Both the position numbers and the translations under genes were made by a program. Below, piece after piece: positions 5,030 through 41,992 of a stretch of DNA of 49,012 bases. The stretch covers positions 1-49,012 of the forward strand of contig JAIPHN010000001.1 of assembly GCA_021735185.1 (NCBI GenBank), written 5' to 3'. Every line of letters begins with the position of its first letter. The first letter of the stretch is position 1. Below the pieces are notes generated by a model. The model was given only the letters and a program-made list of their open reading frames with translations. It was not told the DNA's origin and made no database searches. Source of the stretch: Candidatus Bipolaricaulota bacterium. Its GTDB lineage: Bacteria > Bipolaricaulota > Bipolaricaulia > M55B111.

Positions 5030-5551
5030 TCATGAAAGCTTTTCAATTATAGCCTTCAGGAAGTCGGGCAGGTCGCCGGGATGGCGCGAGCTCACCAGGT
5101 TTGCGTCTACGACGACAGATTTGTCTTTGTAATTAACTCCGGCATTTACCATGTCGTCTTCAATGGCCTCGTAGCTGGTAGCGGTTCTACCTTCAAGTAT
5201 TCCCGCGGATATCGGAACCCAGCCGGCGTGACATATCATGGCCACCATTTTGTTCTGACTGTCGATTTCCGCGACAAAATCCGTAACGGCTTCGTCCCTT
5301 CTCAACTTATCCGGCGAACCGGTTCCTCCCGGTATTACGACTCCGTCCAGCGAGTCCACGTCCAGTTCCATCGCCGAATAGTTCGCTTCAATCGGGTAAC
5401 CGTGTTTACTTTTCTTTACCCCTGCCGAACTTGAAGCAACCACGGTTTCCGCACCTTCTTCCTCTAACCTTATCTTGGGGTACCAGCATTCAAGGTCTTC
5501 GTAACCTTCTTCGACAAGAAATGCAATCCGCTTTTCCGAGATACCAGCCAT
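5030..5551 (-). CDS. DJ-1/PfpI family intracellular protease/amidase
   Basis: Nucleophile-elbow context AMICHAGW and the GGTGSPD segment typical of PfpI. I prefer the internal ATG at 5551 (MAGISEKRIAFLV...), which is preceded by GGAGGG, over the ORF-track start at 5716. Confidence 0.85.
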   Translation of the reverse strand: MAGISEKRIAFLVEEGYEDLECWYPKIRLEEEGAETVVASSSAGVKKSKHGYPIEANYSAMELDVDSLDGVVIPGGTGSPDKLRRDEAVTDFVAEIDSQNKMVAMICHAGWVPISAGILEGRTATSYEAIEDDMVNAGVNYKDKSVVVDANLVSSRHPGDLPDFLKAIIEKLS

Positions 5552-5812
5552 AGTTATCCCTCCAGTGGAATTCTTGATTAATAGACTATAATCATGAGTC
5601 GTAAGTTTTGCAAAAGGTTTCAGTCTAAATGGTGGATAATATTTCCCTCGACGCTCTTTAAACGGACAGTTAAAATACCGATCGGATTCAGTCTGGCCGG
5701 GCTCCCGGGCAATCAATATCTGCTCAAATTCTTCTTAAGTGCTCCTCGATCCCGCTCAACCACTCCGGACCAGGTTCCGGGCGTTCTCGGGAGATTTCGG
5801 CAAACGAAAAAT

Positions 5813-5841
5813 TTGGAAGGGAGCCTGCAGCATGTTATAAT
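5813..5841 (+). promoter_or_regulatory. Sigma-70-like promoter: TTGGAA, 17-nt spacer, TATAAT, with an extended TG
   Basis: TTGGAA at 5813..5818, a 17-nt spacer ending ..CATGT, and TATAAT at 5836..5841. It lies about 110 nt upstream of the 5955 start codon. Confidence 0.45.
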
Positions 5842-5954
5842 TTTTAGTGTTATCGATGAACCAAATAACCCATTTCAACTTAAGGCTTGGTTGGTCGAAA
5901 ACGGTTTCAAGCTGGTGAATATTAATTCTCGTCTAAACCCTCGAGGTGAGTAAA

Positions 5955-6413
5955 ATGAAGACAACGTCAAAGCTTTTCGTTCTTTTACTCGTTTCCGTGG
6001 TCCTGCTTTTAACTTCCGGAACGATCGGAATTGCCGCTGAAGACATATCGCCGGCTGTACCCTCAATTGCGTCTTTCATCTTGCCCGGTGCGGGACAATT
6101 TATCAACGACCAACCAAATAAGGCGCTGACTCATTTCGTCGTCGGCGTTGGTATTTACTCCGCCTACTCGCTGCCTTTCATCTGGAAGTCACCTTTAATT
6201 AGAATACTACCGGCCCTGAATCTCGCCTGGTCCGGTTACAGCGCTTATGATGCCTACCGGGTTGCTGAAGAGAAAAATCGGAGTATTTTTGATTCTTCTT
6301 TAAATTCAAATTCAGAGCCAGTCTATTCCGTTGATCTAGTAGATTCGTCACTAGAACTTTCTACAGGTGCGCCTGAACTATCCGTTTCTTCGGTGTCGGA
6401 AACCAGGCAATAA
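5955..6413 (+). CDS. Small secreted/membrane protein with an LPGAGQ motif (function unknown)
   Basis: Signal-like N-terminus (MKTTSKLFVLLLVSVVLLLTSG), then SFILPGAGQFIND and hydrophobic segments. ATG 5955 is preceded by GAGGTGA. The ORF-track GTG at 5946 is less likely. Confidence 0.5.
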   Translation: MKTTSKLFVLLLVSVVLLLTSGTIGIAAEDISPAVPSIASFILPGAGQFINDQPNKALTHFVVGVGIYSAYSLPFIWKSPLIRILPALNLAWSGYSAYDAYRVAEEKNRSIFDSSLNSNSEPVYSVDLVDSSLELSTGAPELSVSSVSETRQ

Positions 6414-6628: not shown

Positions 6629-7966
6629 TTACCCGTTCAACTCTCTGGCGATAAAGTCGCCGAGTTCTTTCGCGACTTTCTCCGCCCTGTCCTGGTCCTT
6701 GCCCTCGACCATGACTCGGATGACGTCCTGAGTACCGGAAGGACGAACCAGCGTTCTCCCTTCGTCCCCGAGTTCTTTTTCCCATTTATCGATTTCAGCC
6801 TGAATTTCGCCATCTTCCTGAAAGTCTTCCTTGTTGTCGGTGGGTACGTTCTCCAGAACCTGGGGATAGCGGACCATCCCCTCGCCCAGCTGGGACAACT
6901 TTTTTCCTGTTCTCTTCACAATTCCAAGTACCATTAGCGCGGTCAAGACCCCATCTCCCGTAGTATTTACGTCCTGAAATATGATGTGACCTGATTGTTC
7001 CCCTCCGATCAGCGCACCTTGTTTTATCATCTCCTGGGCGACGTATTTGTCCCCGACTTGAGTTCTAACGAGGTCTATTCCGATTTCGTGAAGTGATTTT
7101 TCCAGTCCCAAATTACTCATTACGGTGGAGACAACGGTCGGCGGTTTAAGTTCTCCTTTTTCCATCATGTACTTTGAAGCAAAGTAAAGCACCCTGTCGC
7201 CGTCCACCTCGTTCCCCTGTTCGTCGACAAAGAGAGCTCTATCCCCGTCACCGTCAAAAGCAACTCCTATATCGCTATCCCCGGATTCGACTTCTTCTTT
7301 TAATCTATCCAGGGAAGTTGAACCACAATTCTCGTTGATATTATAACCGGAAGGATTCACCCCGATCTTATTCAGGTCAGCTCCAAGATCGGAAAATAAC
7401 CTGGGAGCAACCCTGTAAGTAGCTCCGTGGGCACAGTCAAGAGCCAACTTCATACCGGTTAAATCGGGCAAATTTTCCCCGAGCCGGTCCTTTAGAGCTT
7501 CGATATAAAGATCTTCCGGGTTTTCAACAGTTGCGATATCCCCCAGGTCACTCCAGCGAGCCAGGCTTTCTCCGTCTCCAGTAACTATGAACTTTTCAAG
7601 CTTTTCCTCCACGTTCGGGGTCAACTTGAGGCCGTCGGAGTCGAAAAACTTTATTCCGTTATCACTGGCCAGGTTGTGCGAAGCCGATATAACCGCACCC
7701 AGCTTTGCGTCAAATTCCTCCAGTAATAACGGTACTCCCGGGGTAGGGAGCACATCCAAAAGGTATACATTCCTGCCGATCGACGAGATTCCGGATGCAA
7801 GGGCGTATTCCAGGGTCCTGGCTGATTGTCGGGTATCAGTACATACCAGGATCGCATCACCCTTCTGAGTTATAATATCGGTCGATTTCCCGAGCTTCAT
7901 CGCCAGTTCCGGGGTGATATCTTCGTTCACTTCGCCGCGCAAGCCGTCAGTTCCAAATAAATCCAC
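6629..7966 (-). CDS. glmM: Phosphoglucosamine mutase
   Basis: Phosphoserine loop SASHNLASDNGIKFF, metal-binding FDGDGDRALFVD, and GGEQSGH. The GTG start is preceded by AAGGAGG. Confidence 0.92.
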   Translation of the reverse strand: MDLFGTDGLRGEVNEDITPELAMKLGKSTDIITQKGDAILVCTDTRQSARTLEYALASGISSIGRNVYLLDVLPTPGVPLLLEEFDAKLGAVISASHNLASDNGIKFFDSDGLKLTPNVEEKLEKFIVTGDGESLARWSDLGDIATVENPEDLYIEALKDRLGENLPDLTGMKLALDCAHGATYRVAPRLFSDLGADLNKIGVNPSGYNINENCGSTSLDRLKEEVESGDSDIGVAFDGDGDRALFVDEQGNEVDGDRVLYFASKYMMEKGELKPPTVVSTVMSNLGLEKSLHEIGIDLVRTQVGDKYVAQEMIKQGALIGGEQSGHIIFQDVNTTGDGVLTALMVLGIVKRTGKKLSQLGEGMVRYPQVLENVPTDNKEDFQEDGEIQAEIDKWEKELGDEGRTLVRPSGTQDVIRVMVEGKDQDRAEKVAKELGDFIARELNG

Positions 7967-7982
7967 CTTTGCCTCCTTATAC

Positions 7983-8672
7983 TTACCGTCTTCTCTTTAC
8001 TTCTTCGGTCTTCTGTTTTAACTTGATGAATGTATCCGGGGGATAATAACCTGAAAGCGATGTATTTGCCGTTGAAAGGGTTCTTCTACCGACCAGTGTC
8101 CCGGGATTCAAAACGGAATTACAGCCAATTTCCGCCCGATCGCCCAGAAGACAGCCAAACTTTCTCAGTCCTGTAGGCACGTCCCCTTCCTCCAGGTGCA
8201 CCACAACGGGCTCCCTGTTGACTTTCAGGTTCGAAACTTTGACACCCGCTCCCAGGTGTCCTTTCCAGCCGATAACGGAGTCCCCAACGTAGGAAAAATG
8301 AGGGATTTCGGCACTGTCGTGGACCAGACTCCTTTTTATTTCAGTACTGTGACCAATGGTTACGCCATCGCCTACCACGACGTCGCTTCGAATATAAGCC
8401 CCGCTTCTTATTTTACAGTTCTCACCGATAATTGCCGGTCCTTTTATCGTCGCACCGGATTCGACTACAGTCCCGTTCCCTATATCGACGTCCTCCGAGA
8501 GCGTCGCCGAATCCGAAACCGTTCCCCGGATTTCCCGGGTCAGTTCTTCTTCAACTATCCCGTGGATCCTCTCCAGAATATCCCACGGATGTCCAAGATC
8601 CATATAGTATTCTTCGTAATCGGTCTTTGCCAGATCGAAAAACCTGTCTATATCTGGAACTTTTTCGATCAT
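7983..8672 (-). CDS. Left-handed beta-helix (hexapeptide-repeat) acyltransferase resembling the C-terminal GlcN-1-P acetyltransferase domain of GlmU, without a nucleotidyltransferase domain
   Basis: Hexapeptide repeats throughout. HFSYVGDSVIGWKGHLGAGVKVSNLK resembles the GlmU segment hLsYvGDa.iG..vNiGAGtit.N. It lies 16 nt upstream of glmM in the same orientation. Confidence 0.65.
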   Translation of the reverse strand: MIEKVPDIDRFFDLAKTDYEEYYMDLGHPWDILERIHGIVEEELTREIRGTVSDSATLSEDVDIGNGTVVESGATIKGPAIIGENCKIRSGAYIRSDVVVGDGVTIGHSTEIKRSLVHDSAEIPHFSYVGDSVIGWKGHLGAGVKVSNLKVNREPVVVHLEEGDVPTGLRKFGCLLGDRAEIGCNSVLNPGTLVGRRTLSTANTSLSGYYPPDTFIKLKQKTEEVKRRR

Positions 8673-8722
8673 TTTTTATAAACCCACCATTTACCTTCTT
8701 TACTCGCGGTTCAACTCGAAAT

Positions 8723-10525
8723 CTATTCGGTCGACTCGGCCATTTGTTTAAATTGAAGCTGATAGAAATCATAGAATTCTCCCTGTTTCTCCATCAGTTG
8801 ATCGAATTTGCCTTTTTCTATGATTTCCCCTGCCTCCACGAACAATATCTGGTCCGCGTTCGTTATGGTAGATAACCTGTGAGCAATCGTAAAGGTCGTT
8901 CGTCCCTTCGAAACCTTATCGATGGCTTCCTGAATTAATTTTTCCGTATAAGTATCGACCGAAGAAGTCGCTTCGTCCAGGATCAGAATTTTCGGGTCCT
9001 GAATTAAGGCACGCGCTATCGAGATTCTCTGTTTTTGCCCCCCGGAAAGCTTTACGCCCCGCTGACCGATATCAGTTTCGTATCCGTCAGGCAGATCGGA
9101 AATAAATTCGTCAACGTTAGCTTCACAGGCATACTCGATTATCTCATCCCTGGTAACCTCGGGCTTTCCGTAGGATATGTTTTCGGTAACCGTACCGGAA
9201 AACAGGTAGTCATCCTGCATCACCATGGCGATATTTCTCCTTAGATGCCGTATATCCCATTCCCTGACGTCCACTTCGTCAAGCTTAACGGACCCCTCAT
9301 TTACGTCGTAAAGTCTGGGTAAAAGTCGTACAAATGTAGTCTTACCGGCGCCGCTTGGTCCTACCAGAGCAACTGTCTGTTCGGGCTCCACCGAGACATC
9401 TATACCGGATAGCACGGTCTCACCTTCACTATAATCGAAATAGACTCCGTCGTAATCTACCCTGCCTTTTACTTCTTCGCGCGGCTTCGTGTAGCCCCCG
9501 GCAGTGTGAACGATCTCGGGCTCTATATCCAGATGGGAAAAGAAACGTTCCGTGCTGGCGAAAAACCTGCTCAACCGCTGGCTAATTTGAACCATCCGAA
9601 GAATTGGCGCTCTAAATCTGATCAAATAGGTATAAAACGCGACCACGGTTCCGGCGGTAAGCGCTCCCTGATAAACAAGGTAACCTCCGTACCCGATCGT
9701 CAGAATCAACCCAAAACTATTGAGGAAATAAGAAACCGGTCCAAGAGTGCTGAAATACTTGATTGCCGAGGCGCGCGCGTCGTAGTGTTCCTCGTTTTGT
9801 TCAAAAAACCGCTCCATCTCGTAGTCCTCGTTGGCAAAGGACTTTATCACCTTCATGCCGGCGAGATTATCTTCCAGACGATCGTTTAGTTTTCCTTTTG
9901 CTTCCCGATTTCGCCGGAATGCCCTGTGCATTCTTCTTATTAGCACAACGGCAAATACAAACAAGAAAGGAGTAAAAGATAGAGCAATTAAGGTCAGCGG
10001 TACGTCCATTAAAAAAAGAATCACCAGAACTCCGGTAATCGTCGTCGTGGCCTGGAGAAATCCCTCGGGACCATGATGGACGAACTCCTGAAGCACGTTT
10101 AGATCATCAATGATTCTGGACATCAGTTCGCCCGTCTTCTTGCTATCGTGAAACTTGAGCGGTAGTTTCTGGAAGTGATCGTATATATCGTTCCTCATGT
10201 CGAAGACGACCTTCTGGGCGATCCTGTGTCCAAAATAGTTCCTGGCAAACCTAACCAGCGATATAACGGAAAACGCTCCAAAAGCCCAGAGAGAAAGCGT
10301 GATTATTTTTCCCAGGTTTTTGGCGGGAATGGCATTATCTATCAGGCTCCTCAACAGGAGAGGGGGAACCAGTCCCGCAAGCGCCCCAAGCACATGGAGG
10401 ACCTGGATCGGTACGTACTCCAGCAGATTGGGCTTTAGGTAATCTTTATAAAATCGCTTCAGAAGAAAACCTTTTGAATACTCTGAATACGTCTGATCGT
10501 CCTCGTCCATTCCCGAATTCTTCAT
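8723..10525 (-). CDS. Fused ABC exporter (TMD-NBD, MsbA/multidrug type)
   Basis: 600 aa with six N-terminal TM helices. Walker A GPSGAGKTT, signature LSGGQKQRISIARAL, Walker B ILILDEATS. Confidence 0.9.
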   Translation of the reverse strand: MKNSGMDEDDQTYSEYSKGFLLKRFYKDYLKPNLLEYVPIQVLHVLGALAGLVPPLLLRSLIDNAIPAKNLGKIITLSLWAFGAFSVISLVRFARNYFGHRIAQKVVFDMRNDIYDHFQKLPLKFHDSKKTGELMSRIIDDLNVLQEFVHHGPEGFLQATTTITGVLVILFLMDVPLTLIALSFTPFLFVFAVVLIRRMHRAFRRNREAKGKLNDRLEDNLAGMKVIKSFANEDYEMERFFEQNEEHYDARASAIKYFSTLGPVSYFLNSFGLILTIGYGGYLVYQGALTAGTVVAFYTYLIRFRAPILRMVQISQRLSRFFASTERFFSHLDIEPEIVHTAGGYTKPREEVKGRVDYDGVYFDYSEGETVLSGIDVSVEPEQTVALVGPSGAGKTTFVRLLPRLYDVNEGSVKLDEVDVREWDIRHLRRNIAMVMQDDYLFSGTVTENISYGKPEVTRDEIIEYACEANVDEFISDLPDGYETDIGQRGVKLSGGQKQRISIARALIQDPKILILDEATSSVDTYTEKLIQEAIDKVSKGRTTFTIAHRLSTITNADQILFVEAGEIIEKGKFDQLMEKQGEFYDFYQLQFKQMAESTE

Positions 10526-10746
10526 AAATCTCCTTACTTATTTCTTAAATTGAGTTTCCGGCAAACTAACTTATAAATTTGCTCCTGAAAGACATCTCTT
10601 TGAGACCATTTCAGCCATAGACAAACAATGATAGTGGTATTTTTACGTCCTTCAACCCCTCAGTGCTGAACTGAATTGCTAATTCCTATAATAAAATAAC
10701 CACTCGCATTTTTTATGAAGTCGGGAGTGATCTACTCGAAACCCCC

Positions 10747-12321
10747 TTAGTTCAGAAAATTTTGCCATTCATCGTAAAGACTGGCGTAATTGTCAAAAAA
10801 GGCAACTGCTTTCTCTCGTTTATTCTCTGCTTTATCGTACTCCCCGAGCTTTCGGTACAGTTTGCTCTGTACTGCATTAATCAGGGCGGATATTTCCTTG
10901 CTGTCGGTACTTTCCTGGACTCTCTCTAACGCTGATACTGATTCTGACAGCCGATCATCCCTACCGAGCCAGGTGTTTAGAAGCGACCTGGCAATTATCA
11001 CAAGATAGGGTTTTGCGGTCTCATCGGTAGGTAGAAGATAACTACCGCCTTCCTCTTTAAGCTCCGTTTCCAGGTAATCCAGTCCGTATTCCAGCCAATC
11101 CCTATTTTTCCGGTACTTGCCAAGAACCCCGAGAAGGATCCTGGGAGTCTCTTTTGCGGCGATTATTCCGTTGTAATAAGATGCCCTAATGTCTCCCTCT
11201 CGCTCCGAATCTTCAAACTTTTTTAGGTATACTTCGGAAAGGAAACTCCGGTCTATTTCGGGCGTAGTCTTCTTCATGTTTTCTATTGCCGATTCCCATT
11301 GCCCCAGCCCCTTCTGCAGTCTCGCTTTAACCTCATATATGTCCTTAGATTTTAATTCCGTTTCCAGAAAGTCGCCGAAAACCTTCAGCTTCTTTGCGGC
11401 AACACTTATTTTCCCCAGCCCGGCTTCGTAAGCTCCCGCGTTCAGGCTTACCCGGGCGATAAGGTATTCAGTCATCGGCGAATACGGGTCAAACTGATCC
11501 GTTCCAGTCAGTCTTTCTATTATCTCTCCGGGCTCTTTTAGTTCTTTCCGCGCTATCTTTTCAGTTATTTCCGACTTCAGGCTGTTGATCAAAGAGCGAA
11601 ACCCCGACCTCTCGAGGTAAAAACTCCCTTCTCTCAGCCCCAGAGAATTATCCCTGTTTTCATCTACCACGAGTTCCAAACTTGAAACGAAAGCCGGCTT
11701 CGGCAATGAAAAGACCGAGTAATCGCCAAACGGCCGGTCATACTCAAACTCCAGCTTCACGCTTCTGGTATCCTCTGGAACCCTAGAACCGTCTTCGTAC
11801 TCATAGCCTCCGGCAATTAACGATAGGGCCTCTTCCCCGGTCCCCTTATTTATCTCAACTATAAACCTGTTAGCGTATGGGAATCGGTCCTTGACCCTCT
11901 CCCCTTTTTTCATATCGAAGTCCAAGCTTATTTCTCCCCCTGGCTTCAGGTAAGCAAAACCAGGGCTTTCTTTACCGGAGCTTTCGGCACTTCTGTTCCC
12001 TCTCTGAATGATTGCATTCCGTGCTTCTTCGGAAGTCATTTCTCTGCGGCAGCCGGTAATACAGGTCGGGTGAAAACCATTTGAAAACAGAGTCACCGAC
12101 TTTCCGGGTTTGGCAGAATAATTCAGCGAATAAAATTCCGGATGATCCGTGTAAATATATGCTTTCTCCGGGTTGAACCTGTAGATTATCGGTTTCTCCT
12201 GCCTGGCAAAGTATATCGTAATCCCGCTCACTATAATCGCAAAGACCAATATCCCCCCAATAGTCCTAAAAGCTCTGGTCCAGGATGAAAGGGAACCCGA
12301 ATTATCCTTCCCTCCGAACAT
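10747..12321 (-). CDS. Hypothetical single-pass membrane protein with a helical-repeat (TPR-like) C-terminal half
   Basis: 524-aa ORF with a TM segment (GGILVFAIIVSGITIYF) and GAGGTGA ahead of the ATG. It starts 9 nt after the stop of the S9 peptidase gene. No catalytic motif was recognised. Confidence 0.6.
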   Translation of the reverse strand: MFGGKDNSGSLSSWTRAFRTIGGILVFAIIVSGITIYFARQEKPIIYRFNPEKAYIYTDHPEFYSLNYSAKPGKSVTLFSNGFHPTCITGCRREMTSEEARNAIIQRGNRSAESSGKESPGFAYLKPGGEISLDFDMKKGERVKDRFPYANRFIVEINKGTGEEALSLIAGGYEYEDGSRVPEDTRSVKLEFEYDRPFGDYSVFSLPKPAFVSSLELVVDENRDNSLGLREGSFYLERSGFRSLINSLKSEITEKIARKELKEPGEIIERLTGTDQFDPYSPMTEYLIARVSLNAGAYEAGLGKISVAAKKLKVFGDFLETELKSKDIYEVKARLQKGLGQWESAIENMKKTTPEIDRSFLSEVYLKKFEDSEREGDIRASYYNGIIAAKETPRILLGVLGKYRKNRDWLEYGLDYLETELKEEGGSYLLPTDETAKPYLVIIARSLLNTWLGRDDRLSESVSALERVQESTDSKEISALINAVQSKLYRKLGEYDKAENKREKAVAFFDNYASLYDEWQNFLN

Positions 12322-12330
12322 AGCTTCACC

Positions 12331-14256
12331 TCACTTTTCTAGGTTTTTTATCTCGACTTTTTCTATTTTTTCCGGGGGATGAAAGTTCAGTATCCGTGAG
12401 TAAAAGAATAGTTCCGCCTCCAGGGAGCGCTCGATATTTTTCTCTTTTCTAAATCCGTGCTGTTCGTCTTCAAAGAGGAGATAGGCTGTGGGAACATTCC
12501 TGCCTGCAAGTGACTTATACATTGCTTTTGCCTGGTCAGGCGGCACCACTTCATCTTCACCACCCTGAAAGAATATCACCGGGGAAGTGATATCCTCAGA
12601 GTGTTTTATCGGAGATCTCTCTTCGTAGATATCCTCCGCTTCGGGATAAGGACCAATTAATCCATCCAGGTACCTGGATTCGAATTTATGCGTATCTTCC
12701 GAGAGCTTTACGGGGTCACTCACGCCGTAATAACTCGCCCCGGCACGGAACACGTCTTTAAAAGCCAGCGAGGCGAGGGTCGTATAACCACCGGCGCTAC
12801 CCCCTCTGACGGCCAGCCTGTCCCGATCCACCTTCCCAATTTCTGCAAGGTGCAGAGCACCTCTTGCACAGTCCTCTACATCGACTACACCCCATTCACC
12901 TTTCAACTCCTGTCTGTAATCTCTGCCAAATCCGGTGCTCCCGCGGTAGTTAACGTCAAGCACGGCAATTCCGCGGCTCGTCCAGTACTGGATTTCCTGA
13001 GACAACCCGTCAGAAGTCGACGCAGTCGGACCACCATGGCTTACCACGAGAAGTGGGGGTTTTTCCGACTCCGGCCCCCTGTACTCCTTATTATTTGGGG
13101 AGTAGTAGAAAGAATGTACTTTTTCTCCTTCTGATTCGAATTCAATCGTTTCGAGAACAGAAAAATACCCCTTATCCACCTCCGGCGAGAAAGATAGCTT
13201 GAGCGTATCCACTTTTCCCGTATCCCGCGAAAGCACTCTGATTCCGGGGGGATTGTCCGGGCTTCCTCCGATGAACCAGACTTCGTTCCCTTCAGCTTTA
13301 AGAGAAGATATTTGTGTATAGGGAAGGTCATAGGATTTAGAACTCCCGTCCTCCAGATCCTTCTCTCCGGAAAACCAGCGGCCGTTCTCCGAATAGGTAT
13401 AAACGAGCTTTCCCGGTGCCGGGAAATCGTAAGTGGATATCCCGAATTGCCATTGTGGCCTGCCAAATTCGGCCTTCCTTTCAATTATTCGCTTTCCCTC
13501 CTCCCCGTTCCAGCTATAGAGATTCCACCAGCCCGTTCTATCGGAAACGTAAAAAAGGTCACCTGATTTACTCCACTTCGGAATAATAACGGATTCAGAT
13601 TCGCCGCCCGCGATAACCCTCTGGTCTTTTAGATCACCTTTTTCATTTAACTCACCAACGTGAAGGCAGGTGCCGTCCCAGGGCATATTCGGATGGTCCC
13701 AGGTAACCCAGCAAATTTTGTCCCTCTCCTGGTTAATTCTCGGGGAAGCGTAGAAATCATGCCCTCTGGCAACAACTTCCTGGTGACCGTTATCGTCTAG
13801 AGGTATAGCTACGAGGTAGTTCTCAGGTTCTCCATCTCCAGTATGGTCTTCGCAAACCCCCAGAAGTCTGCCCCTTTCATCGTCCAGGACGTAGTCAGCG
13901 TAACGAAAACTGCCCTCGGGGGAAACCGGCCGGGGTTCTTTTCCTTCAGCCATCCTGTAAATTCTCTGATCGGCGAAATTGGAAAAATAAATGACCCCTT
14001 CACTAACCTCGTAGGACCCTCCGCCGTACTCGTGCACGCGGTTCCTCACGTTAAACCCGTCCGGCGTCAAATCAACTGGTTTTCCGCCTTTGTCTAACTT
14101 GACAATGATATTTCTCCCACCCTCGCCGGGACGCGTTTCTAGCCAGTAAAGCGATTCAGCTTCAGGTTGAATTTCAGCCAGTCCAACCCTTCCGGATGCA
14201 ACTTTTTCCGCCGTGATCGGCGTCTTCCAGGAACCGTATTCTTTTACTTCTTTCAA
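12331..14256 (-). CDS. S9 family serine peptidase (prolyl oligopeptidase / acylaminoacyl-peptidase type)
   Basis: N-terminal beta-propeller-like region and a C-terminal alpha/beta hydrolase domain with GGSAGGY (nucleophile Ser) and the ...EDEQHGF His region. The TTG start is preceded by GGGAGGGG. Confidence 0.88.
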   Translation of the reverse strand: MKEVKEYGSWKTPITAEKVASGRVGLAEIQPEAESLYWLETRPGEGGRNIIVKLDKGGKPVDLTPDGFNVRNRVHEYGGGSYEVSEGVIYFSNFADQRIYRMAEGKEPRPVSPEGSFRYADYVLDDERGRLLGVCEDHTGDGEPENYLVAIPLDDNGHQEVVARGHDFYASPRINQERDKICWVTWDHPNMPWDGTCLHVGELNEKGDLKDQRVIAGGESESVIIPKWSKSGDLFYVSDRTGWWNLYSWNGEEGKRIIERKAEFGRPQWQFGISTYDFPAPGKLVYTYSENGRWFSGEKDLEDGSSKSYDLPYTQISSLKAEGNEVWFIGGSPDNPPGIRVLSRDTGKVDTLKLSFSPEVDKGYFSVLETIEFESEGEKVHSFYYSPNNKEYRGPESEKPPLLVVSHGGPTASTSDGLSQEIQYWTSRGIAVLDVNYRGSTGFGRDYRQELKGEWGVVDVEDCARGALHLAEIGKVDRDRLAVRGGSAGGYTTLASLAFKDVFRAGASYYGVSDPVKLSEDTHKFESRYLDGLIGPYPEAEDIYEERSPIKHSEDITSPVIFFQGGEDEVVPPDQAKAMYKSLAGRNVPTAYLLFEDEQHGFRKEKNIERSLEAELFFYSRILNFHPPEKIEKVEIKNLEK

Positions 14257-14325
14257 GATCGACCCCTCCCAGGAGTATTATTCGCCAGCACAAAAATTAA
14301 CCCCGGGATCATCCAGGGCATCAAA

Positions 14326-14353
14326 AACATACTCAAATTGACTTATAAATCAA
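14326..14353 (-). promoter_or_regulatory. Possible promoter for the S9 peptidase gene: TTGATT, 16-nt spacer, TATGTT
   Basis: On the minus strand, TTGATT lies at 14353..14348 and TATGTT at 14331..14326. It sits between the gene start (14256) and the MITE insertion (TSD starts at 14367). Confidence 0.25.
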
Positions 14354-14371
14354 GCTGAATATTTAATAAAA

Positions 14372-14715
14372 CCTAAGTTGTGCGATTCTCTCACTCATGA
14401 CCAACTTCTAAATGGGTATTCAAGTTGAAATCACTGCCCTTTGAGAAATCTAATTGCTTCACCCAGTTGGTGACCTCTAAAATGTTTGTGCCAACTTGCT
14501 CTCTCGAAACTTTCAACCAGCACCCAGATGAGCTCCGGAACTTGGCTCTAGATTTTTTACTTCCCTGGAGTATAGGCTGCCAGGCTCGTTTAATGGTAGA
14601 TTATATTTCCAGGTTACTTTTCTCATCTGGGTGCTGGACCAAGTCTTGCTTGCAAAATAAAAATTATAAATACCACTGAACTTTCAGCTAACCTGTCCAA
14701 ACCGCTTAAATTAGG
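14372..14715 (+). mobile_element. MITE-like non-autonomous element, copy 1 (344 bp): arm A, invertible core, arm B
   Basis: Aligns end to end with the reverse complement of 41104..41448. Imperfect TIRs are CCTAAGTTGTGCGATT and CCTAATTTAAGCGGTT (12/16). The 5-bp direct repeat TAAAA is exact at 14367..14371 and 14716..14720. No ORF is conserved between copies. Confidence 0.8.
14517..14637. repeat. Core module of copy 1: perfect 16-bp inverted repeats (CCAGCACCCAGATGAG / CTCATCTGGGTGCTGG) flanking 89 bp
   Basis: IRL at 14517..14532 and IRR at 14622..14637, read directly. The 89-bp interior has the same plus-strand orientation as in copy 2, although the arms are reverse-complemented. Confidence 0.75.
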
Positions 14716-14828
14716 TAAAAGATTTTTTGATTAAAAAGCCCGATTTGTGATATTATAGAATAGTTAGATTTATTCCACTCAAATCATAACTGTTAAGTGA
14801 GAGCCAGACCGGGAAGGAGAAAACCTAT

Positions 14829-15599
14829 CTAGCTGCCTTTCGATCCTTCTCCCACTTCCGCTAATAACCCCACCGTTTCTTCGACGATAATTTTCATCTG
14901 TTTTTCTCGGCTGATCCCTGCCTTACCGTCGCCTGATTGAAAACCGTACCAGCCAAACTGGCTATGGTTACCGCCGGTTATTTCGACGAATTCCGTATCC
15001 GGCGGAAGTTGTTCCCGGGATCGAACGACTTTTGACTCATTTATTATTTCATCTCTTCCCCCGATAATACTTAAGACCTTCAGATCGGTAGAGAAACTTT
15101 CTCCTTTCTGGGGGTAAGAAGCCCAGAGCAGAAGCCCTTCAACGGAATAATCCGTTCGGACAACAAACCTGGCCGCCATTGCACCCCCCATAGAGTGGCC
15201 GCCAATAACCCAATCTTTTTCTTCGGAGTGGTTAGTAATGATTTCTCCCGCTTTTTTCCACCCGAGAACCGCCAGGTTCAGTGGGGCGCTAACCAGAAAT
15301 ACTTCATACCCTTCTTCGGCGATTTTCAGTGCCTCCGGGGCATAAGCCCGGACCGGAACTCTTGCCCCGGGATAGAATATCAAACCCACTTCGGGTTCCG
15401 AACCCCAAGGGGTATAATGGAACCCACTTACTCCTTCGGTATCGATCTCTTCAACCTCAACGGCCTCGCTACCCTGCAGGGCTTCCGAAGCTCGATTCAT
15501 GACCTCCTGCGGCCTTATAAACCACCCGGCTGTTCCCAAACCGGCCAGAAGCAGGGCTATAGCTACCGATATCAGAGGTAGTTTTAATTTTTTTCTCAT
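14829..15599 (-). CDS. Alpha/beta hydrolase, membrane-anchored or secreted
   Basis: N-terminal signal/anchor (KLKLPLISVAIALLLAGLGTAGW) and nucleophile elbow GGHSMGG. Confidence 0.8.
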   Translation of the reverse strand: MRKKLKLPLISVAIALLLAGLGTAGWFIRPQEVMNRASEALQGSEAVEVEEIDTEGVSGFHYTPWGSEPEVGLIFYPGARVPVRAYAPEALKIAEEGYEVFLVSAPLNLAVLGWKKAGEIITNHSEEKDWVIGGHSMGGAMAARFVVRTDYSVEGLLLWASYPQKGESFSTDLKVLSIIGGRDEIINESKVVRSREQLPPDTEFVEITGGNHSQFGWYGFQSGDGKAGISREKQMKIIVEETVGLLAEVGEGSKGS

Positions 15600-15726
15600 C
15601 TTTACTTAATCTCCCGTTAGACGATAGAATTCTAAAATACCGGACTTAAACTGACAAGTTTGGAATAAAGAGTATTTAACGTATTGATCGGGTTTAACTC
15701 TGAACGAGGATGGTTATACTTAGTCC

Positions 15727-16611
15727 ATGATTTATCTGATATTTGCGGGCATTAGTTTTGGCACTATCGGTCTTTTTGTTAACCTTATTGGAAACAGTGT
15801 TTCAACGCTTTTGGTCGTCTCGATCAGATTACTATCTACCGCCGGACTTATCTACCTCTACCAGATTTTTAAGGGTACCAGGAAAAAAATTCGGCTGAAC
15901 TCTCGCCGGGAGCTTTATATAGTTATAGTCGGCGGTATTATTGGTTTCGCAACGACTTTTAGCCTGTATTTAAAATCGCTGTTATTGATACCAGTTTCCG
16001 AAGCAGTATTCCTCCACTACGTGGCCTTCCCCTTTACCACAATACTTTACTCCTCGATCTTCCTAAAAGAAAAAGTAACCGGCTACGAACTCCTCTCTCT
16101 GCTGGGGACGGCTCTTGGAGTATTTTTCATTTACAACGTTGGTTTTGCCGGGGGGTTTTCCTCGCTTTTTGGTTACAGCATTGCCTTTCTATCCGGGATA
16201 ACTTATACTGCCGCTCTTCTGGTACTAAAGAACCTGGGGGAAAGCAAAACCACTTTACAGTCACTCTTCTGGCCGACTTTCGTCGGTGGAATAGCCCTCC
16301 TGCCAGTTTCCCTGCTCGGGGGGTTTACCTTCAAGATGGGAAACGGCGCCCTGGCCCCGCTCCTGGGCCTGGTGCTGATTTCAACCCTCCTGGGGTATTC
16401 TCTCTTTGCAAGGGGGTTAAAGGAAACCAGAGCGGGATTGTCTTCTCTAATTCTTATCGCCGTCGAACCGCTTTCAGCTGCCCTAATGGCCATATTCTTT
16501 CTGGGGGAGTCCCTTACCCTGTCTTCAGCTCTGGGCGGGGGTCTGGTAATTTCATCCGGAATACTGCTTTATATAAGCCAATCGCGCAGCACAAAAAGTC
16601 GTGATTATTGA
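15727..16611 (+). CDS. EamA/DMT superfamily transporter
   Basis: 294 aa, about 10 TM helices arranged as two EamA-like halves. Confidence 0.82.
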   Translation: MIYLIFAGISFGTIGLFVNLIGNSVSTLLVVSIRLLSTAGLIYLYQIFKGTRKKIRLNSRRELYIVIVGGIIGFATTFSLYLKSLLLIPVSEAVFLHYVAFPFTTILYSSIFLKEKVTGYELLSLLGTALGVFFIYNVGFAGGFSSLFGYSIAFLSGITYTAALLVLKNLGESKTTLQSLFWPTFVGGIALLPVSLLGGFTFKMGNGALAPLLGLVLISTLLGYSLFARGLKETRAGLSSLILIAVEPLSAALMAIFFLGESLTLSSALGGGLVISSGILLYISQSRSTKSRDY

Positions 16612-26370: not shown

Positions 26371-26384
26371 AGACAGGCCCGATA

Positions 26385-27329
26385 ATGTTTGGTTATATTT
26401 CCAGGAAATTTCTCGAGCTCATCCTGACACTACTGCTGGTCTCGCTAATTATTTTTCTCCTGCTGAGAGTTATTCCCGGTGATCCGGCGCAGCTGATTCT
26501 CGGGGTTAACGCCTCACCTGAAAGTCTGGCCGAATTACGGGGTGAACTGGGCCTGACAGAACCACTTACCGTACAATATTTATCCTGGTTAAAAAGTATC
26601 TTTTCCGGTAGCCTCGGCGATTCAATATTTTACGAGAAAAGCGTTCAAAGCCTGATTTTATCCCGGCTCCAGGTCACGCTACCACTGACGTTCCTTGCCA
26701 CGTTACTGTCCGTAACCATAGCTGTTCCTCTGGGCCTGCTGGCAGCAACTAATCATAAAAAAGCAACGGATTTTGGGGTAATAGCGTTTTCACAGCTGGG
26801 ATTATCCGTACCCGCTTTCTGGCTGGGAATTTTAGGCCTGCTGCTTTTCTCCCTAAAGCTAAACTTATTGCCGGCGGGTGGCTTTACTGAGTGGGGAACA
26901 AGTCCAGTTGCAGGATTAAAATCGCTCGTCCTCCCGGTACTGACGCTCACCGTGATTCAATCCGCCGCACTGACCCGAATGACCAGATCGTCCGCTCTCG
27001 ACGTGATGAGGGAGGACTACGTCTCAACAGCAAGGGGAAAAGGCCTGCCGGAAGTAAAGGTAATATACAAACACGTACTAACAAACGGTTTCATCTCGAT
27101 TTTAACTTTAATCGGGCTACAGGTCGGACAACTGCTGGCCGGGGCCGTAATAGTAGAAACCGTCTTCCATCTGCCTGGACTGGGGCGGTTACTGATCCTC
27201 GCCGTGGAACAACGAGACCTGCAGCTTGTACAATCCCTGGTAACTTTTCTTGTCGGCGCAATTATTTCTATTAACTTCCTCGTGGACATGACTTACGGAA
27301 TTCTTGACCCGAGAATCAGATTAAGATAA
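26385..27329 (+). CDS. ABC peptide-type transporter permease (DppB/OppB-like)
   Basis: The N-terminus MFGYISRKFLELILTLL is typical of DppB, and an EAA-loop region is present (VSTARGKGLPE). ATG 26385 lies just after the SBP stop at 26370. Confidence 0.9.
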   Translation: MFGYISRKFLELILTLLLVSLIIFLLLRVIPGDPAQLILGVNASPESLAELRGELGLTEPLTVQYLSWLKSIFSGSLGDSIFYEKSVQSLILSRLQVTLPLTFLATLLSVTIAVPLGLLAATNHKKATDFGVIAFSQLGLSVPAFWLGILGLLLFSLKLNLLPAGGFTEWGTSPVAGLKSLVLPVLTLTVIQSAALTRMTRSSALDVMREDYVSTARGKGLPEVKVIYKHVLTNGFISILTLIGLQVGQLLAGAVIVETVFHLPGLGRLLILAVEQRDLQLVQSLVTFLVGAIISINFLVDMTYGILDPRIRLR

Positions 27330-32044: not shown

Positions 32045-34036
32045 CTAGCCCATTTCCGAGTAAATATACCCCATGACCATCACCACGACTCCAATACCTG
32101 CAAGTAGTTCACGCTGGCCAATGTTAAATTGCCCCTGATTCGAATCAGTCGTCTCTTTTTCCGCCATTTCCGCTGCTGGGGTTTTTACGTTACCCGTTCC
32201 TGCCAGACCGGATTCACCCGAGTCATTATAGGCCGCAATCTCATATGAATAAGAGGAGTTTGGATTCAATCCAGTATCGAGGTAACCAGTTGTGTTCGGT
32301 CCCAGGGTCGCAATTTCGGTGCCGTTACGGTATATACGGAAACCGTCCTCGTTATCGGACCAATCCTTCCAGCTTAACTTGATCTCGCTGCTTGAAAGTG
32401 GTGTAGCCTGAACGTTTCTTGGAACGCCAGGTATGGACTTCAACGTCATCGAACAGTTACGATTCGTCGTACCGGACTCACCGCTGCTATTATATGCCAC
32501 TACCTGGTAACAATAGCGGGTTTCACCACTCAGACCTTTATGAATATAACTACCTGTGTTGGCCCCTACTGTCGCTACCGTATTACCGTTCCTGTATATT
32601 CTGAAACCGTCTTCGTTACTCGAATTGTCATTCCAGGTTAGTTTTATCCGCGAGGGAGAAAGAGTCTCCGTCTTTAATTGCCCCGGAGAACTCGGGACCT
32701 CTACCGGTGTAGTTAATTCCAAACCGGAAGAAAATGAGGATTCCCCTGCTTTATTATACGAAGAAATCTTGTACGTATAGCTAGTATCTTCGTTCAACCC
32801 GGTATCTACGTAGCTTGTAGTATTTGGACCAAGTTCGGCAATTTTTTTACCGTTCCGGTATATTCTGAAACCGTCTTCGTTGTCCGAATTGTCGTTCCAG
32901 GTTAGTCTTATCCTTGTCGGGGAAAGTATTTTAGAGGAGATGTTCCCTGGGGCAACCGAAACCTGTACCGGGGTCGACACGGTAAGTCCGTCAGTCAGAG
33001 GTGACTCCTTTCCATCGTTATAAGAAGAAACTCTATAAGTATATTCCGTATTGCTTGCAAGTCCGGTGTCAGTGAACGAGGTGGTGTTAGCACTTACCGT
33101 AGCTATTTCGCTTCCGTTCCGGTAAATCCTGAAGCCGGCTTCGTTATCAGAATTATCTTCCCAGGTTAATCTTATCTTGGATGGAGATAAAATTCTGGAA
33201 GACAGAGCTCCGGGAGTCTCAGATGCCCTTATACTGGTTGTAACACTCTGAGTGCTGGATAACCGCGATTCCCCGCTATTATTGAAAGAAGCTATTTGAT
33301 AATTGTAATTCTTTCCCCCTTCCAGCCCGCTATCCACGAAGGAAGTAACGTTAGCTCCCACCGTGGCTATTTCCGTTCCGTTTCTATAGACCCTGAAACC
33401 GTCTTCGTCGTCAGAATTGTCATTCCAGGTTAACCTGACCTCGGTGGAGGAAAGAACCTGAGTTCCAAGATTACCAGGGGAATTGGGTGTCTGTAAATCC
33501 CCAACCATTTCTTCGTCTCCGCCCCCTTCCGGCTGCTGGACCTCTCCAGTACCTCCCGTCCTGTTAATCCGGAAATAAACGCGATAATTTTTACAGCAGC
33601 TCAAAGTGATTCTAATGTAAAACCTTCCTGCCCCCACCTGTTTTCCTTCAGTATTTGTCTGATCCCAGGCCCAAACCCATTTTTCTCTGTCTCTTTCTAT
33701 CGGTCCTACGTCTTTCGCAACGTAAAATAGCTGGTACTCGTGTTCGAACATGGGTTTAAAGTGGACCTCGACCTTCTCGACAAAGTACTCGAAATCCTTC
33801 AAATCAGAGAGAGTTAGCTTTACTTCCTCGCCTAACCCGTATTCCTCTTTATCGGTATCAAGCGTTTCGTATCTCTCCGGACAATAACTCTTTTCTTCTG
33901 CTTCCCAGACCGGGCAACCATTGCGATAAGTATATTCTGGATTTCGACCTTCCGTCTGAGAAAGGGGAGCCACAGTTACTAATAAGCCGATTAATAAAGC
34001 TGCGACAACCAGTGCAGAACTCCAGTATCGGCGCAT
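32045..34036 (-). CDS. Cell-surface protein: signal peptide, ~150-aa Cys-containing N-terminal domain, five tandem fibronectin type III repeats, C-terminal TM anchor
   Basis: 663 aa. There are five ~88-aa repeats, each with L(T/S)W.DNSDNEDGFRIYRNG...Y.Y.(V/I).(A/S)YN..GES. The C-terminus is LLAGIGVVVMVMGYIY. Confidence 0.8.
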   Translation of the reverse strand: MRRYWSSALVVAALLIGLLVTVAPLSQTEGRNPEYTYRNGCPVWEAEEKSYCPERYETLDTDKEEYGLGEEVKLTLSDLKDFEYFVEKVEVHFKPMFEHEYQLFYVAKDVGPIERDREKWVWAWDQTNTEGKQVGAGRFYIRITLSCCKNYRVYFRINRTGGTGEVQQPEGGGDEEMVGDLQTPNSPGNLGTQVLSSTEVRLTWNDNSDDEDGFRVYRNGTEIATVGANVTSFVDSGLEGGKNYNYQIASFNNSGESRLSSTQSVTTSIRASETPGALSSRILSPSKIRLTWEDNSDNEAGFRIYRNGSEIATVSANTTSFTDTGLASNTEYTYRVSSYNDGKESPLTDGLTVSTPVQVSVAPGNISSKILSPTRIRLTWNDNSDNEDGFRIYRNGKKIAELGPNTTSYVDTGLNEDTSYTYKISSYNKAGESSFSSGLELTTPVEVPSSPGQLKTETLSPSRIKLTWNDNSSNEDGFRIYRNGNTVATVGANTGSYIHKGLSGETRYCYQVVAYNSSGESGTTNRNCSMTLKSIPGVPRNVQATPLSSSEIKLSWKDWSDNEDGFRIYRNGTEIATLGPNTTGYLDTGLNPNSSYSYEIAAYNDSGESGLAGTGNVKTPAAEMAEKETTDSNQGQFNIGQRELLAGIGVVVMVMGYIYSEMG
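32165..33487 (-). repeat. Five tandem ~264-bp coding repeats (the FN3 modules)
   Basis: The periodicity is visible at DNA level (recurring ccgttccggtatattctgaaaccgtcttcgtt.. blocks) and at protein level (aa ~184-624). Confidence 0.8.
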
Positions 34037-34482
34037 TCTGCCACCTCCTAAAGGAAACTTACTAATTTATCTAACTTTGCAGTCGGATCTAAAAAATTAA
34101 ATTTAAGTTGTCCAACTCTCTTAAGTGCGACCAACTTCTAACCCAAAGAGCAAACACAACCTCAGGCGACACTCACCAGGTTAATAAAAATACTCTTTAA
34201 CGTTTCATCAGGACTCAAATGACTCCCGGTGTTGTTAAAAAAGCTTAATTCCTCCTAACAAAGGAATCCAGCACGGGCTTCACCTGGTTCTTTCCGATCT
34301 CACTCGTTACAATCGGACATTCTTCCCCTTGAACGCTACCATCTGGAAAAATGATACTCATTACTCGGTTTCAACTGGACAGGTCAATCGTTCCAGTGCT
34401 TGTTAGTGGCAAAGTAACTCCTTTCACCTTAAAATACTGTCATGTAAGGGAAAAACAGTATTAACTGTAGTGAGGTATAGCT

Positions 34483-34866
34483 ATGAGCGAAGACAAAAGG
34501 CTGATTCAACTCGCACTCGAATCCAGAGATAAGGCTTATGCCCCTTATTCAGAATTCCCGGTCGGGGCTGCTTTACTGACAGAGGAGGGCGAAACGTACA
34601 CGGGGGTAAACGTCGAGAACGGTGTCAACGACCTCTCGATATGCGCCGAGAGAGTTGCTCTGTTTAAAGCTATTTCCGAGGGGGAGAGAAAATTCACAAA
34701 GCTCGCAGTCGTCTGCGAGGGGGAATACTGCCAGCCCTGTGGGGCCTGCAGGCAGACGTTATTCGAACACGCACCAAATTTGACTGTTTTGATGGGGAAC
34801 CTGAAGGAGGAATACAGAACCGTTCAGCTCGCGGAACTTCTCCCGGAAGCCTTTCAGCTGGAATAA
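34483..34866 (+). CDS. cdd: Cytidine deaminase
   Basis: 127 aa with zinc motifs CAERVALFKA and PCGACRQ. Confidence 0.92.
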   Translation: MSEDKRLIQLALESRDKAYAPYSEFPVGAALLTEEGETYTGVNVENGVNDLSICAERVALFKAISEGERKFTKLAVVCEGEYCQPCGACRQTLFEHAPNLTVLMGNLKEEYRTVQLAELLPEAFQLE

Positions 34867-35315: not shown

Positions 35316-35846
35316 ATGGAACTACAATTGAGCGAACTAAAGAACAATGAAGGGCAGTTAATCTCGATCGACGAGAGTGGCTCTCTGGATACGATAAGTT
35401 TTCACGATGACGAACTGGAAGTCAGGGAAGATCTAAGAATCACCGGGGGAGCAATATTTACCTCGGAAGAAGTAATTGACGTTTCCCTGGATTTTTCCAC
35501 AACCGTCATCGAACACTGTCGCAGGTGCCTCGAACCGATCGAGACAGATATAGACAGGCACGAGGAGATCGAATTTCGGCCCGATATGGATGCGGAGGTA
35601 ACAAGCGAAGGCAACTTATCGATATACAAATACGAAAGCGGAAGCGGGGCGATAGACCTTTTGCCATATATAATCAGATTTATCAAGCTGGATCTGGATC
35701 CTTACCCATTATGCAAGGATGACTGCCAGGGGCTCTGTCCAAAATGTGGAGCCAATCTGAACGAGGAAGAAGATCATTCCTGTGAAACGGAAGAGGAAGG
35801 TGAAGCCAAGGATCCAAGAATGGAAAAACTGGCTGAATTATTGTGA
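35316..35846 (+). CDS. yceD: YceD/DUF177 family protein
   Basis: CRRCLEP ... CKDDCQGLCPKCGANLN cysteine pattern of DUF177. I prefer ATG 35316, preceded by GGAGGAG, over the TTG at 35298. Confidence 0.8.
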   Translation: MELQLSELKNNEGQLISIDESGSLDTISFHDDELEVREDLRITGGAIFTSEEVIDVSLDFSTTVIEHCRRCLEPIETDIDRHEEIEFRPDMDAEVTSEGNLSIYKYESGSGAIDLLPYIIRFIKLDLDPYPLCKDDCQGLCPKCGANLNEEEDHSCETEEEGEAKDPRMEKLAELL

Positions 35847-36352
35847 GTGAGTCGGAAATCATCCTTGGAATCGATCCTGGTCTGGCAACTTGCGGTTACG
35901 CTGCAGTAGAGGCTACGGGGAGAAGATCTTTTCAGCTAATTGAAAGTGGGGCAATTCGCACGAGCTCCGACGAACCGATAAATGCCAGGCTGAAGGCGAT
36001 CCACGATTCTGTCCACGGGTTAATCTGCGACCATCAGGCGGAAACGGTTGCAATAGAAAAGATATTTTTTAGCAACAACCAGAAGACCGCCATCCTCGTC
36101 GCTCAGGCCCGGGGAGTCATTCTTCTGGCTGCGTCGGACAGGCAGGTGGAAAGCTATTCGCCTCTTGAGATAAAGAAGACGATAACGGGTTACGGTAAAG
36201 CAAATAAAAAACAGGTCCAGACAATGGTCCAACGATTGCTGGGTTTAAACGAGCTCCCTTCACCGGCCGATGCGGCTGACGCAATCGGAGTTTCTCTGTG
36301 CTGTGGCATGGAAACTAAATCCGCTCTGAAAGAACAATGGGAGTCACAATGA
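35843..36352 (+). CDS. ruvC: Crossover junction endodeoxyribonuclease RuvC
   Basis: ILGIDPGLATCGYA (catalytic Asp), AIEKIFF (Glu) and the PADAADAIGV region. The GTG start overlaps the yceD stop (GTGA). Confidence 0.92.
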   Translation: MSESEIILGIDPGLATCGYAAVEATGRRSFQLIESGAIRTSSDEPINARLKAIHDSVHGLICDHQAETVAIEKIFFSNNQKTAILVAQARGVILLAASDRQVESYSPLEIKKTITGYGKANKKQVQTMVQRLLGLNELPSPADAADAIGVSLCCGMETKSALKEQWESQ

Positions 36353-40968: not shown

Positions 40969-41103
40969 ACAAAGAATAGGGCAACTTTGGACTCTCGAGA
41001 TTTATTTTTTCTTCAACTTTTATGCAAAACTTGCCTAAAACCCCTTTCGCAGATAATTTATGCAGAAAAATGATACTAAAAATCTTTTATGGATTAAGTT
41101 AAA

Positions 41104-41448: not shown

Positions 41449-41611
41449 TTAAAATTATCACCAATTAGAAAGCAAAATTATTCATTTGAACCTTCCCTCC
41501 AGGCGCTATATGATTTCAGAGAATTTGGAGCTAAAACATAGTTCGACGGCATAGCATTATAGCTTTCATGTTAAATCGTCATCTTAACTCAGGAATTAAC
41601 AGGTGATAAAA

Positions 41612-41854: not shown

Positions 41855-41992
41855 ATTTGACCAGGTATGGTGAAAAATTACGACAATCAAACTCCAGTCA
41901 GTCTGTTTTCTCGAACTGGCTAACCAACTAATTGACCTACACGGCCGATTTACTTATTATTGGTTTTGAAGATGTGCTAAAAATGACAGGGT

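Follow-up and report, generated by a model that had tools for sequence, protein, structure and literature searches.

A MITE family of the Bipolaricaulota with an internal palindromic module in two inherited orientations

Two copies of a small transposable element lie within the window, the 49,012-nucleotide stretch of a Candidatus Bipolaricaulota bacterium contig analyzed here, and the 121-bp core of the element is inverted relative to the arms in one copy compared with the other. Both orientations recur in related genomes, where they follow the phylogeny of the element. The dimorphism is real but historical, and it is very probably not a regulatory on/off switch. The reading that we favor, and hold to be reasonably probable, is that the core was inverted on rare occasions through its own flanking repeats, that no dedicated recombinase was involved, and that each orientation was then inherited. 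The element is an ordinary mobile one apart from its internal palindromic module, which is unusual and highly conserved.

The element and its mobility

The element is a mobile, nonautonomous transposon, that is, a MITE, because it has terminal repeats, target-site duplications, an empty site in a relative, dispersed copies, and no recognizable open reading frame (ORF). An earlier reading of the window from its letters alone (the sequence-only reading) had already called it a MITE, and the 3-bp duplications, the empty site in the relative L029, and more than 30 dispersed copies bear this out. The element bounds given there were slightly too narrow; the true ends and the duplications that flank them are listed in Table 1.

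Table 1. Coordinates of the two element copies in the window, their parts, and neighboring genes
Feature	Position	Strand	Remarks
MITE copy 1	14371-14716	+	346 bp; core orientation S; duplication AAA
Copy 1, neighboring gene (peptidase S9)	12331-14256	-	
Copy 1, neighboring gene (alpha/beta hydrolase)	14829-15599	-	
Copy 1, target-site duplication AAA	14368-14370 (left), 14717-14719 (right)		L029 has an empty site with a single AAA
Copy 1, left arm	14371-14516	+	146 bp; opens with terminal inverted repeat ACCTAAGTTGTGCG
Copy 1, left 16-bp core repeat	14517-14532	+	CCAGCACCCAGATGAG
Copy 1, core interior (spacer)	14533-14621	+	89 bp; orientation differs between copies
Copy 1, right 16-bp core repeat	14622-14637	+	CTCATCTGGGTGCTGG; exact reverse complement of the left repeat
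Copy 1, right arm	14638-14716	+	79 bp; type A; terminal repeat ...CCGCTTAAATTAGGT at its end
MITE copy 2	41103-41449	-	347 bp; core F relative to its own arms
Copy 2, neighboring gene (dnaA)	39523-40968	+	
Copy 2, neighboring gene (biotin/lipoyl domain)	41612-41854	+	
Copy 2, target-site duplication TAA	41100-41102, 41450-41452		
Copy 2, left arm	41304-41449	-	89% identity to copy 1 left arm
Copy 2, core	41183-41303	+	Interior (41199-41287) direct relative to copy 1 core
Copy 2, core repeats	41183-41198, 41288-41303		CCATCACCCAGATGAG (15/16); CTCATCTGGGTGCTGG
Copy 2, right arm	41103-41182	-	Type A; 96% identity to copy 1 right arm
Third MITE-like element, flanking gene (fn3-repeat protein)	32045-34036	-	
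Third MITE-like element, flanking gene (cytidine deaminase)	34483-34866	+	

The terminal inverted repeats are imperfect (ACCTAAGTYGTGCG ... CGCTNAATTTRGGT) and conserved across the family. For instance, the ACCTAAGTTGTGCG end of copy 1 matches the reverse complement of the right end, ACCTAATTTAAGCG, at 11 of 14 positions. Relatives were collected by scanning one genome per species for two 12-mers of the core repeat spaced 75 to 105 bp apart, which returned 30 loci, all of them in about 11 MAGs of the Bipolaricaulota/Acetothermia, some of which are labeled "uncultured Thermotogae." Several of these MAGs come from salt-lake sites. Since the scan needed both 12-mers to be intact, the sample is biased toward intact cores. 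The layout is the same at every scanned locus: a left arm of 146 bp that starts with ACCTAAGTYGTGCGATTCTCTC, a core of 119 to 121 bp, and a right arm of 77 to 81 bp that finishes with CGCTNAATTTRGGT, for an element size of 342 to 348 bp in the family. Of 25 copies that could be tested with an automatic end-finder, 14 have a 3-bp duplication without mismatch, for which chance would give 1/64 per copy, and 4 more have a two-out-of-three match. The element is presumably moved by a DDE-type transposase supplied in trans, as suggested by the terminal inverted repeats together with the 3-bp duplications.

The most direct evidence of movement comes from L029, a MAG that is 88 to 92% identical to the window and syntenic with it over 7775-15782. 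Its site is empty (L029:1057-1073) exactly at the position of copy 1. Conversely, L029 has a private copy (L029:4856-5201) that was inserted at a position corresponding to about 10571-10575 in the window. This reciprocal presence and absence indicates that the family has been active since the two lineages split. Moreover, the flanks differ among all copies, with the exception of the pair L002 and L007, which is considered below.

The element does not appear to code for a protein. Its 84-amino-acid ORF gave no Pfam match and no homologue in a protein database, and open frames are not conserved between copies. Scans of 272 kb of DNA and of plasmid and phage collections turned up no autonomous partner, whether an insertion sequence or a transposase, and viral contigs, plasmids, and phages yielded no matches to the element itself.

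As for the surroundings of copy 2, dnaA forms a cluster with ruvC (35843-36352) and polA (36337-39027). Copy 2 lies 135 bp downstream of dnaA, and it may therefore be close to the replication origin.

Inversion of the core between the two copies

The 89-bp core interiors of the two copies align plus strand to plus strand at 75 of 89 positions, with an alignment score of 61, compared to -1 for plus to minus. A repeat finder likewise reports the entire 121-bp core as a direct repeat between the copies (88% identity). The arms, on the other hand, are inverted repeats of each other, as evidenced by one match of 163 nt (14370-14532 versus 41288-41450; 90%) and another of 103 nt (14608-14710 versus 41110-41212; 92%). 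Because the arms align plus to minus and the core aligns plus to plus, the core is inverted relative to the arms. The repeat pairs, the plus-to-plus interiors, the plus-to-minus arms, and the opposite core orientations had been described in the sequence-only reading, and each was recovered: rereading both loci gave the perfect repeat pair of copy 1 and the 15/16 and exact repeats of copy 2, realignment reproduced the plus-to-plus figure for the interiors, the arms matched as inverted repeats, and the direct repeat inside these inverted arms places the cores in opposite orientations.

The junctions of the flip coincide exactly with the boundaries of the core inverted repeats, which are perfect over 16 bp and extend to about 30 bp when an imperfect extension is counted. 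With at most one mismatch allowed, the motif CCAGCACCCAG occurs 5 times in the window versus 0.33 times expected, and none of 100 shuffled sequences reached 5. The same architecture was found again at 30 loci of other genomes. A 32-nt similarity to the core at 26383-26414, which lies inside an ABC permease gene, was taken as chance.

That one copy had its core threaded the wrong way through the repeat during assembly is so improbable as to be nearly negligible. The source is evidently a metagenome assembly, and one Logan contig from the read set SRR12088346 does break inside a terminus of the element. Nevertheless, the perfect repeat is merely 16 bp long and the cores differ at 14 positions, so junction k-mers of 18 or more should derive from real reads. 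Also, repeated independent assemblies, from about 11 further MAGs and from 2 metagenomes, contain both configurations. The Logan contig in question (L031; 1071 bp) is 100% identical to window 41421-42491 and begins 29 bp inside the left terminus of copy 2, evidence that assemblies with short k break there. This match identifies SRR12088346 as a public read set in which the window organism is present. Exact-protein look-ups of the flanking genes for other assemblies of the two loci came back empty in three cases and in one case led to a 1-kb contig ending in the element.

A large chromosomal inversion between the two oppositely placed copies was considered and rejected, since the sequence on either side of copy 1 runs collinear with L029. 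By reasoning alone, such an event would exchange arms and could not turn a core against both of its own arms.

Orientation across the family

Core orientation could be typed, from assembled sequence, in 34 copies, two of which come from metagenomes. Twenty copies are oriented like window copy 1 (S) and 14 like copy 2 (F). Neighbor-joining trees of the left arm, the core, and both combined contain one large S clade, the other lineages being F. On the tree of left arm plus core, Fitch parsimony requires 3 changes of orientation; in 2000 permutations of the labels, it required 9.96 on average and never fewer than 5. Two of the three changes are well supported, and the remaining one belongs to L005, an outlier on a long branch. 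Given a tree length of 2.62 substitutions per site, the flip rate is about 1 per substitution per site.

Close relatives agree throughout. The 25 closest pairs are all of the same orientation, and near-identical copies at different insertion sites keep theirs (L001 and L023; L004 and L007; the GSL5 copies). For instance, four complete GSL5 copies share an orientation, with three of them (L008, L013, and L024) at distances of 0.011 to 0.019. An orientation that is tied to phylogeny and concordant in the closest pairs is incompatible with frequent phase variation. Recently transposed, near-identical copies are always in the same orientation, and on this evidence we also rejected a hairpin "flip-flop" at each replication or transposition, similar to that of AAV.

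Window copy 1 stands out from this pattern. Both its arms and its core fall in the F1 clade, beside copy 2, and its sister group is entirely F in 98.7% of bootstraps. As an S copy inside the F1 clade, it therefore represents a secondary re-inversion in its own lineage. The two window copies are the closest pair of opposite orientation among the typed copies, at a distance of 0.126. Taken together, the trees imply at least two precise inversions in the history of the family, one old and one in the copy 1 lineage, each of which was then inherited. A single old inversion, which the sequence-only reading had named as an outcome that would speak against a switch, is therefore not what the 34-copy phylogeny gives. 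A survey of copies, as proposed there, shows that both orientations are common, ties orientation to clade, and makes flips rare.

One pair of loci initially resembles a flip in place. L002:~455-800 (F, with a type B right arm; see below) and L007:~5760-6102 (S, with a type A right arm) occupy the same site in the same direction, and their flanks are 83 to 90% identical. However, the duplications do not coincide (CCT versus TCC, shifted by 1 bp) and the elements are far more diverged than the flanks, and an in-place flip was rejected on these grounds. The pair looks like an independent insertion at a hotspot or the replacement of a whole element.

Conservation of the core repeats

The 16-bp repeat is invariant in 67 of 68 arms. 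Elsewhere in the element, conservation per column is 70 to 90%, and at the transposon ends it is about 85%. This invariance covers four outer bases that lie outside the search pattern, and it holds in copies that were retrieved via the left terminus alone (L033 and L035). The repeat sequence is probably recognized by some protein, because homogenization matches the arms to each other and does not stop them from drifting jointly.

Paired changes in the two arms are found as well. In L036, two copies have CCAGCACCCAGTTTAA / TTAAACTGGGTGCTGG, with ATGAG/CTCAT changed to TTTAA/TTAAA, and L035:13690-13808 has C8T and G11A in both arms. Such paired changes are as predicted by arm homogenization through template switching. 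Cores of both orientations align end to end, up to the boundary of the inverted repeats.

A further feature is a small conserved hairpin in the left arm of all copies, which in copy 1 reads TCACC-CAGTT-GGTGA at about 14460-14474. In its general form, (T)CACC(C)-loop-(G)GGTG(A), the loop is variable and the stem is kept, and the half-sites resemble the core repeat (CACCCAG / CTGGGTG). By this resemblance, the hairpin may be a third copy of the putative protein-binding motif.

Exchange of right arms and core cassettes

Three types of right arm (A, B, and C) can be distinguished, and their distribution is incongruent with the clades defined by left arm and core. The types share just their first ~20 nt (ACCAA.T.TTGCTKG.AAAAT) and their terminal ~15 nt, and each has a small hairpin of its own. 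Pairwise comparisons illustrate the mosaicism. Window copy 2 and L014 are 87% identical in the left arm and 92% in the core, compared to 53% in the right arm; for L027 and L001, the corresponding values are 85%, 97%, and 62%. L014 and L023 are 70% identical in the left arm, 82% in the core, and 80% in the right arm.

The core itself may be replaced too. Two copies in L036 (8113-8454 and, on the minus strand, ~200-400) have a "type 2" core, the interior of which is unrelated to the usual one, with a similarity no better than that of shuffled sequences. This interior lies between the variant repeats CCAGCACCCAGTTTAA/TTAAACTGGGTGCTGG, with the same outer 11 bp (CCAGCACCCAG...CTGGGTGCTGG). At the left boundary, both copies have CCAGCAC partly duplicated in tandem, and their right arms are of type A in one and type C in the other. 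At L035:13690-13808, a diverged type 1 core (~62% identical) is bounded by repeats CCAGCACTCAAATGAG, and its flanks have no detectable likeness to the arms. That locus has a further repeat-like motif, CCAGCACTCACTTGAGG, at 13580-13596 and stops at 13886. Finally, L034:3340-3500 (minus strand) has a normal left arm that is truncated a few bases into the left repeat and continues as GC-rich, probably coding DNA, which suggests a deletion or rearrangement broken at the repeat.

Search for features of a switch

Promoter scans detected no sigma-70-like promoter in either core of the window copies. The lone conserved TATAAT is on the opposite strand without a -35 partner, and the core was rejected as an invertible promoter. 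Roughly 40 ORFs were scanned in the window. They are housekeeping genes, with dnaA, polA, and ruvC among them, and none codes for an invertase, integrase, recombinase, or transposase. The sequence-only reading had likewise seen no invertase or integrase there, and the scan extends that result to transposases.

A known RNA family was excluded as well: Rfam at gathering thresholds returned nothing in the whole window, and a snoRNA match at the locus was at chance level (E = 0.63). A structured RNA in the core also found no favor, given that RNAalifold predicted the invariant 16-bp stem alone, with covariation of about 0 and an unstructured interior.

Origin of the two orientations

The core is a long quasi-palindrome in which two perfect 16-bp inverted repeats enclose a spacer of 89 bp. 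In the favored reading, this spacer would have been inverted precisely at the repeats a few times. One old event would part the S clade from the F lineages. A later event would have re-inverted copy 1 within the F clade, with orientation passed on through further transposition. The cause would be occasional exchange between the repeat arms, either through template switching during replication or through recombination within the molecule. A copy lying the other way round on the chromosome could yield the same product by conversion, with the two repeats as anchors, and this equivalent route is inseparable from the others here. Copies also seem to cross over with one another at the same repeats, and this would account for the shuffling of right arms and the replacement of cassettes. 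Template switching between the arms of inverted repeats can invert the spacer reversibly and recurrently, homogenizes the arms, and has been documented for arms longer than 9 bp (PMC8604942; PMC5941160). The documented spacers are far shorter than the 89 bp seen here, being 2 to 5 bp in a yeast study, and searches went up to 70 bp (PMC8604942; PMC5941160). A one-off hairpin or template-switch inversion was among the options listed in the sequence-only reading, and with precise endpoints at the inverted repeats and homogenized arms, it is the best supported of them.

We assign a minor but real probability to ectopic conversion as a separate explanation, in which an oppositely oriented copy replaced the core of copy 1 with its own, the repeats serving as anchors in either polarity. 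The window copies are in opposite chromosomal orientations and their cores are direct repeats, and the widespread mosaicism of right arms shows that segments do pass between copies, breaking at the right repeat or beside it. However, 16 bp is a very short anchor for homologous recombination. Moreover, with the copy 1 core 88% identical to copy 2 and ~91% identical to L014, L025, and L030, no donor is identifiable, and the outcome is indistinguishable from an intramolecular inversion with these data. A true inverton is quite improbable. It would involve a recombinase, encoded elsewhere in the genome, that recognizes the 16-bp repeats and flips the core at each locus, so that a directional terminator or promoter, for example, would give a phase-variable output. 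In its favor, inverted repeats bound the segment, its size is typical of invertons, its repeats are invariant while the rest drifts, as would be expected for a protein recognition site, and at least two inversions are independent. In addition, the core of the F1 clade, on one strand, has a hairpin and T-run scored as terminator-like (41198-41214). Yet this feature was scored in copy 2 only and lacks conservation across the S clade, the core has no promoter, and the window has no recombinase. Not one of the 2000 permutations reached a number of changes as low as the 3 observed, the closest pairs are concordant (25/25), and the flip rate is many orders of magnitude below that of phase variation. 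The phase-variable inverton as cargo of a MITE, which the sequence-only reading had put forward, thus gives way to an orientation that is stable within clades.

There is likewise only a small chance that the core is a separate mini-element, ending in the 16-bp repeats, that entered a core-less scaffold in either orientation more than once. Conserved termini would be expected of recognition ends. Further support comes from the unrelated type 2 interior between the same outer 11 bp in two L036 copies, from the diverged type 1 core in flanks that are not arms (L035:13690-13808), and from L034, which is truncated just inside the left repeat. In spite of this, all 32 canonical cores found with the core-only pattern are at the identical scaffold position and none is solo, and no direct duplication surrounds the core (TTTCAA|core|ACCAA). 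Scaffolds without a core, which would have the arm junction AACTTTCAA|ACCAA, numbered 0 among 5 loci found with the arm pattern, a small sample. With both the arms and the core of copy 1 in F1, inversion in place is also more parsimonious. The nested mini-element suggested earlier is therefore weakened by position and duplication, although the unrelated cassettes between the same repeat ends speak for it. We give similarly little credence to a variant in which a protein supplied in trans, either a transposase or an unlinked recombinase, crosses over at the repeats and perhaps at the left-arm hairpin, inverting the core and swapping modules. If true, the MITE would carry a slow modular recombination system resembling a shufflon or integron, with the two types of core cassette and the three types of right arm as its modules.

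Comparison with known systems

Bacterial MITEs derived from insertion sequences include the Correia/NEMIS elements of Neisseria and MITEAba12 of Acinetobacter. Like these, the present element is about 345 bp long, noncoding, and intergenic, with terminal inverted repeats and short duplications, dispersed copies, presence or absence between close relatives, and modular end variants that recombine. In contrast to them, this family has an inner module with invariant 16-bp inverted repeats, both orientations, and at least two unrelated cassettes, and it has no autonomous partner in the DNA scanned (272 kb). A text search of the library consulted found no report on MITEs in the host phylum Bipolaricaulota and none on an invertible MITE core.

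Well-known invertons include fimS of E. coli, the hin/hix system of Salmonella, the invertible promoters of Bacteroides, and cwpV of C. difficile. The core shares with them a segment of about 100 bp that is flanked by inverted repeats and found in both orientations, a likeness in geometry alone. Unlike in invertons, orientation here is fixed within clades and inherited via transposition, flips occur on the scale of point substitutions, and there is neither a detected promoter nor an adjacent recombinase.

Shufflons and integron cassettes exemplify module exchange that is driven by a recombinase. They resemble this family in having alternative cassettes and orientations between conserved short repeats and in their mosaic modules, and the likeness is one of resemblance only. 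The repeats here have no sfx or attC architecture, and events are rare. To our knowledge, no Rci- or IntI-type recombinase is associated with this element family.

The flip itself matches the inversion of the spacer between inverted repeats by template switching, as in the Ripley model (PMC8604942; PMC5941160). The shared features are perfect arms, precise and reversible inversion, recurrence in the phylogeny, and paired arm changes. The differences are the 89-bp spacer, compared to a few base pairs, the conservation of the arm sequence across copies, and the location of the event inside a mobile element, where each state is amplified by transposition.

These comparisons matter for genome scans. 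What looks at first like an inverton carried by a MITE is better understood as a rearrangement that became frozen, which advises caution where invertons are called from inverted repeats plus a pair of orientations. The family also adds a new MITE, with clean evidence of recent mobility, to a poorly studied and uncultured phylum. Its architecture is unusual in that the repeats of the inner module are far better conserved than the transposon ends, and in that this module is inverted, replaced, and used as a crossover point. Should a protein turn out to recognize the repeats, module exchange by mobile elements could be studied in this family as a tractable natural system.

Related and adjacent elements

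A third MITE-like element of ~333 bp lies at 34101-34433 in the window, between the two genes listed in Table 1. Its first ~48 nt are 73 to 74% similar to the left terminus of the family, and its remainder is unrelated and has no repeat-bounded core. It has short terminal repeats of its own (TTTAAGTTG/CACCTTAAA) and is possibly a second family that uses the same transposase. At L006:~5030-5045, the left flank of a copy (...AATATTAGGT TTA ACCTAAAT...) ends in a stretch that resembles the right terminus of another family member, and the L006 copy may be a tandem or adjacent insertion.
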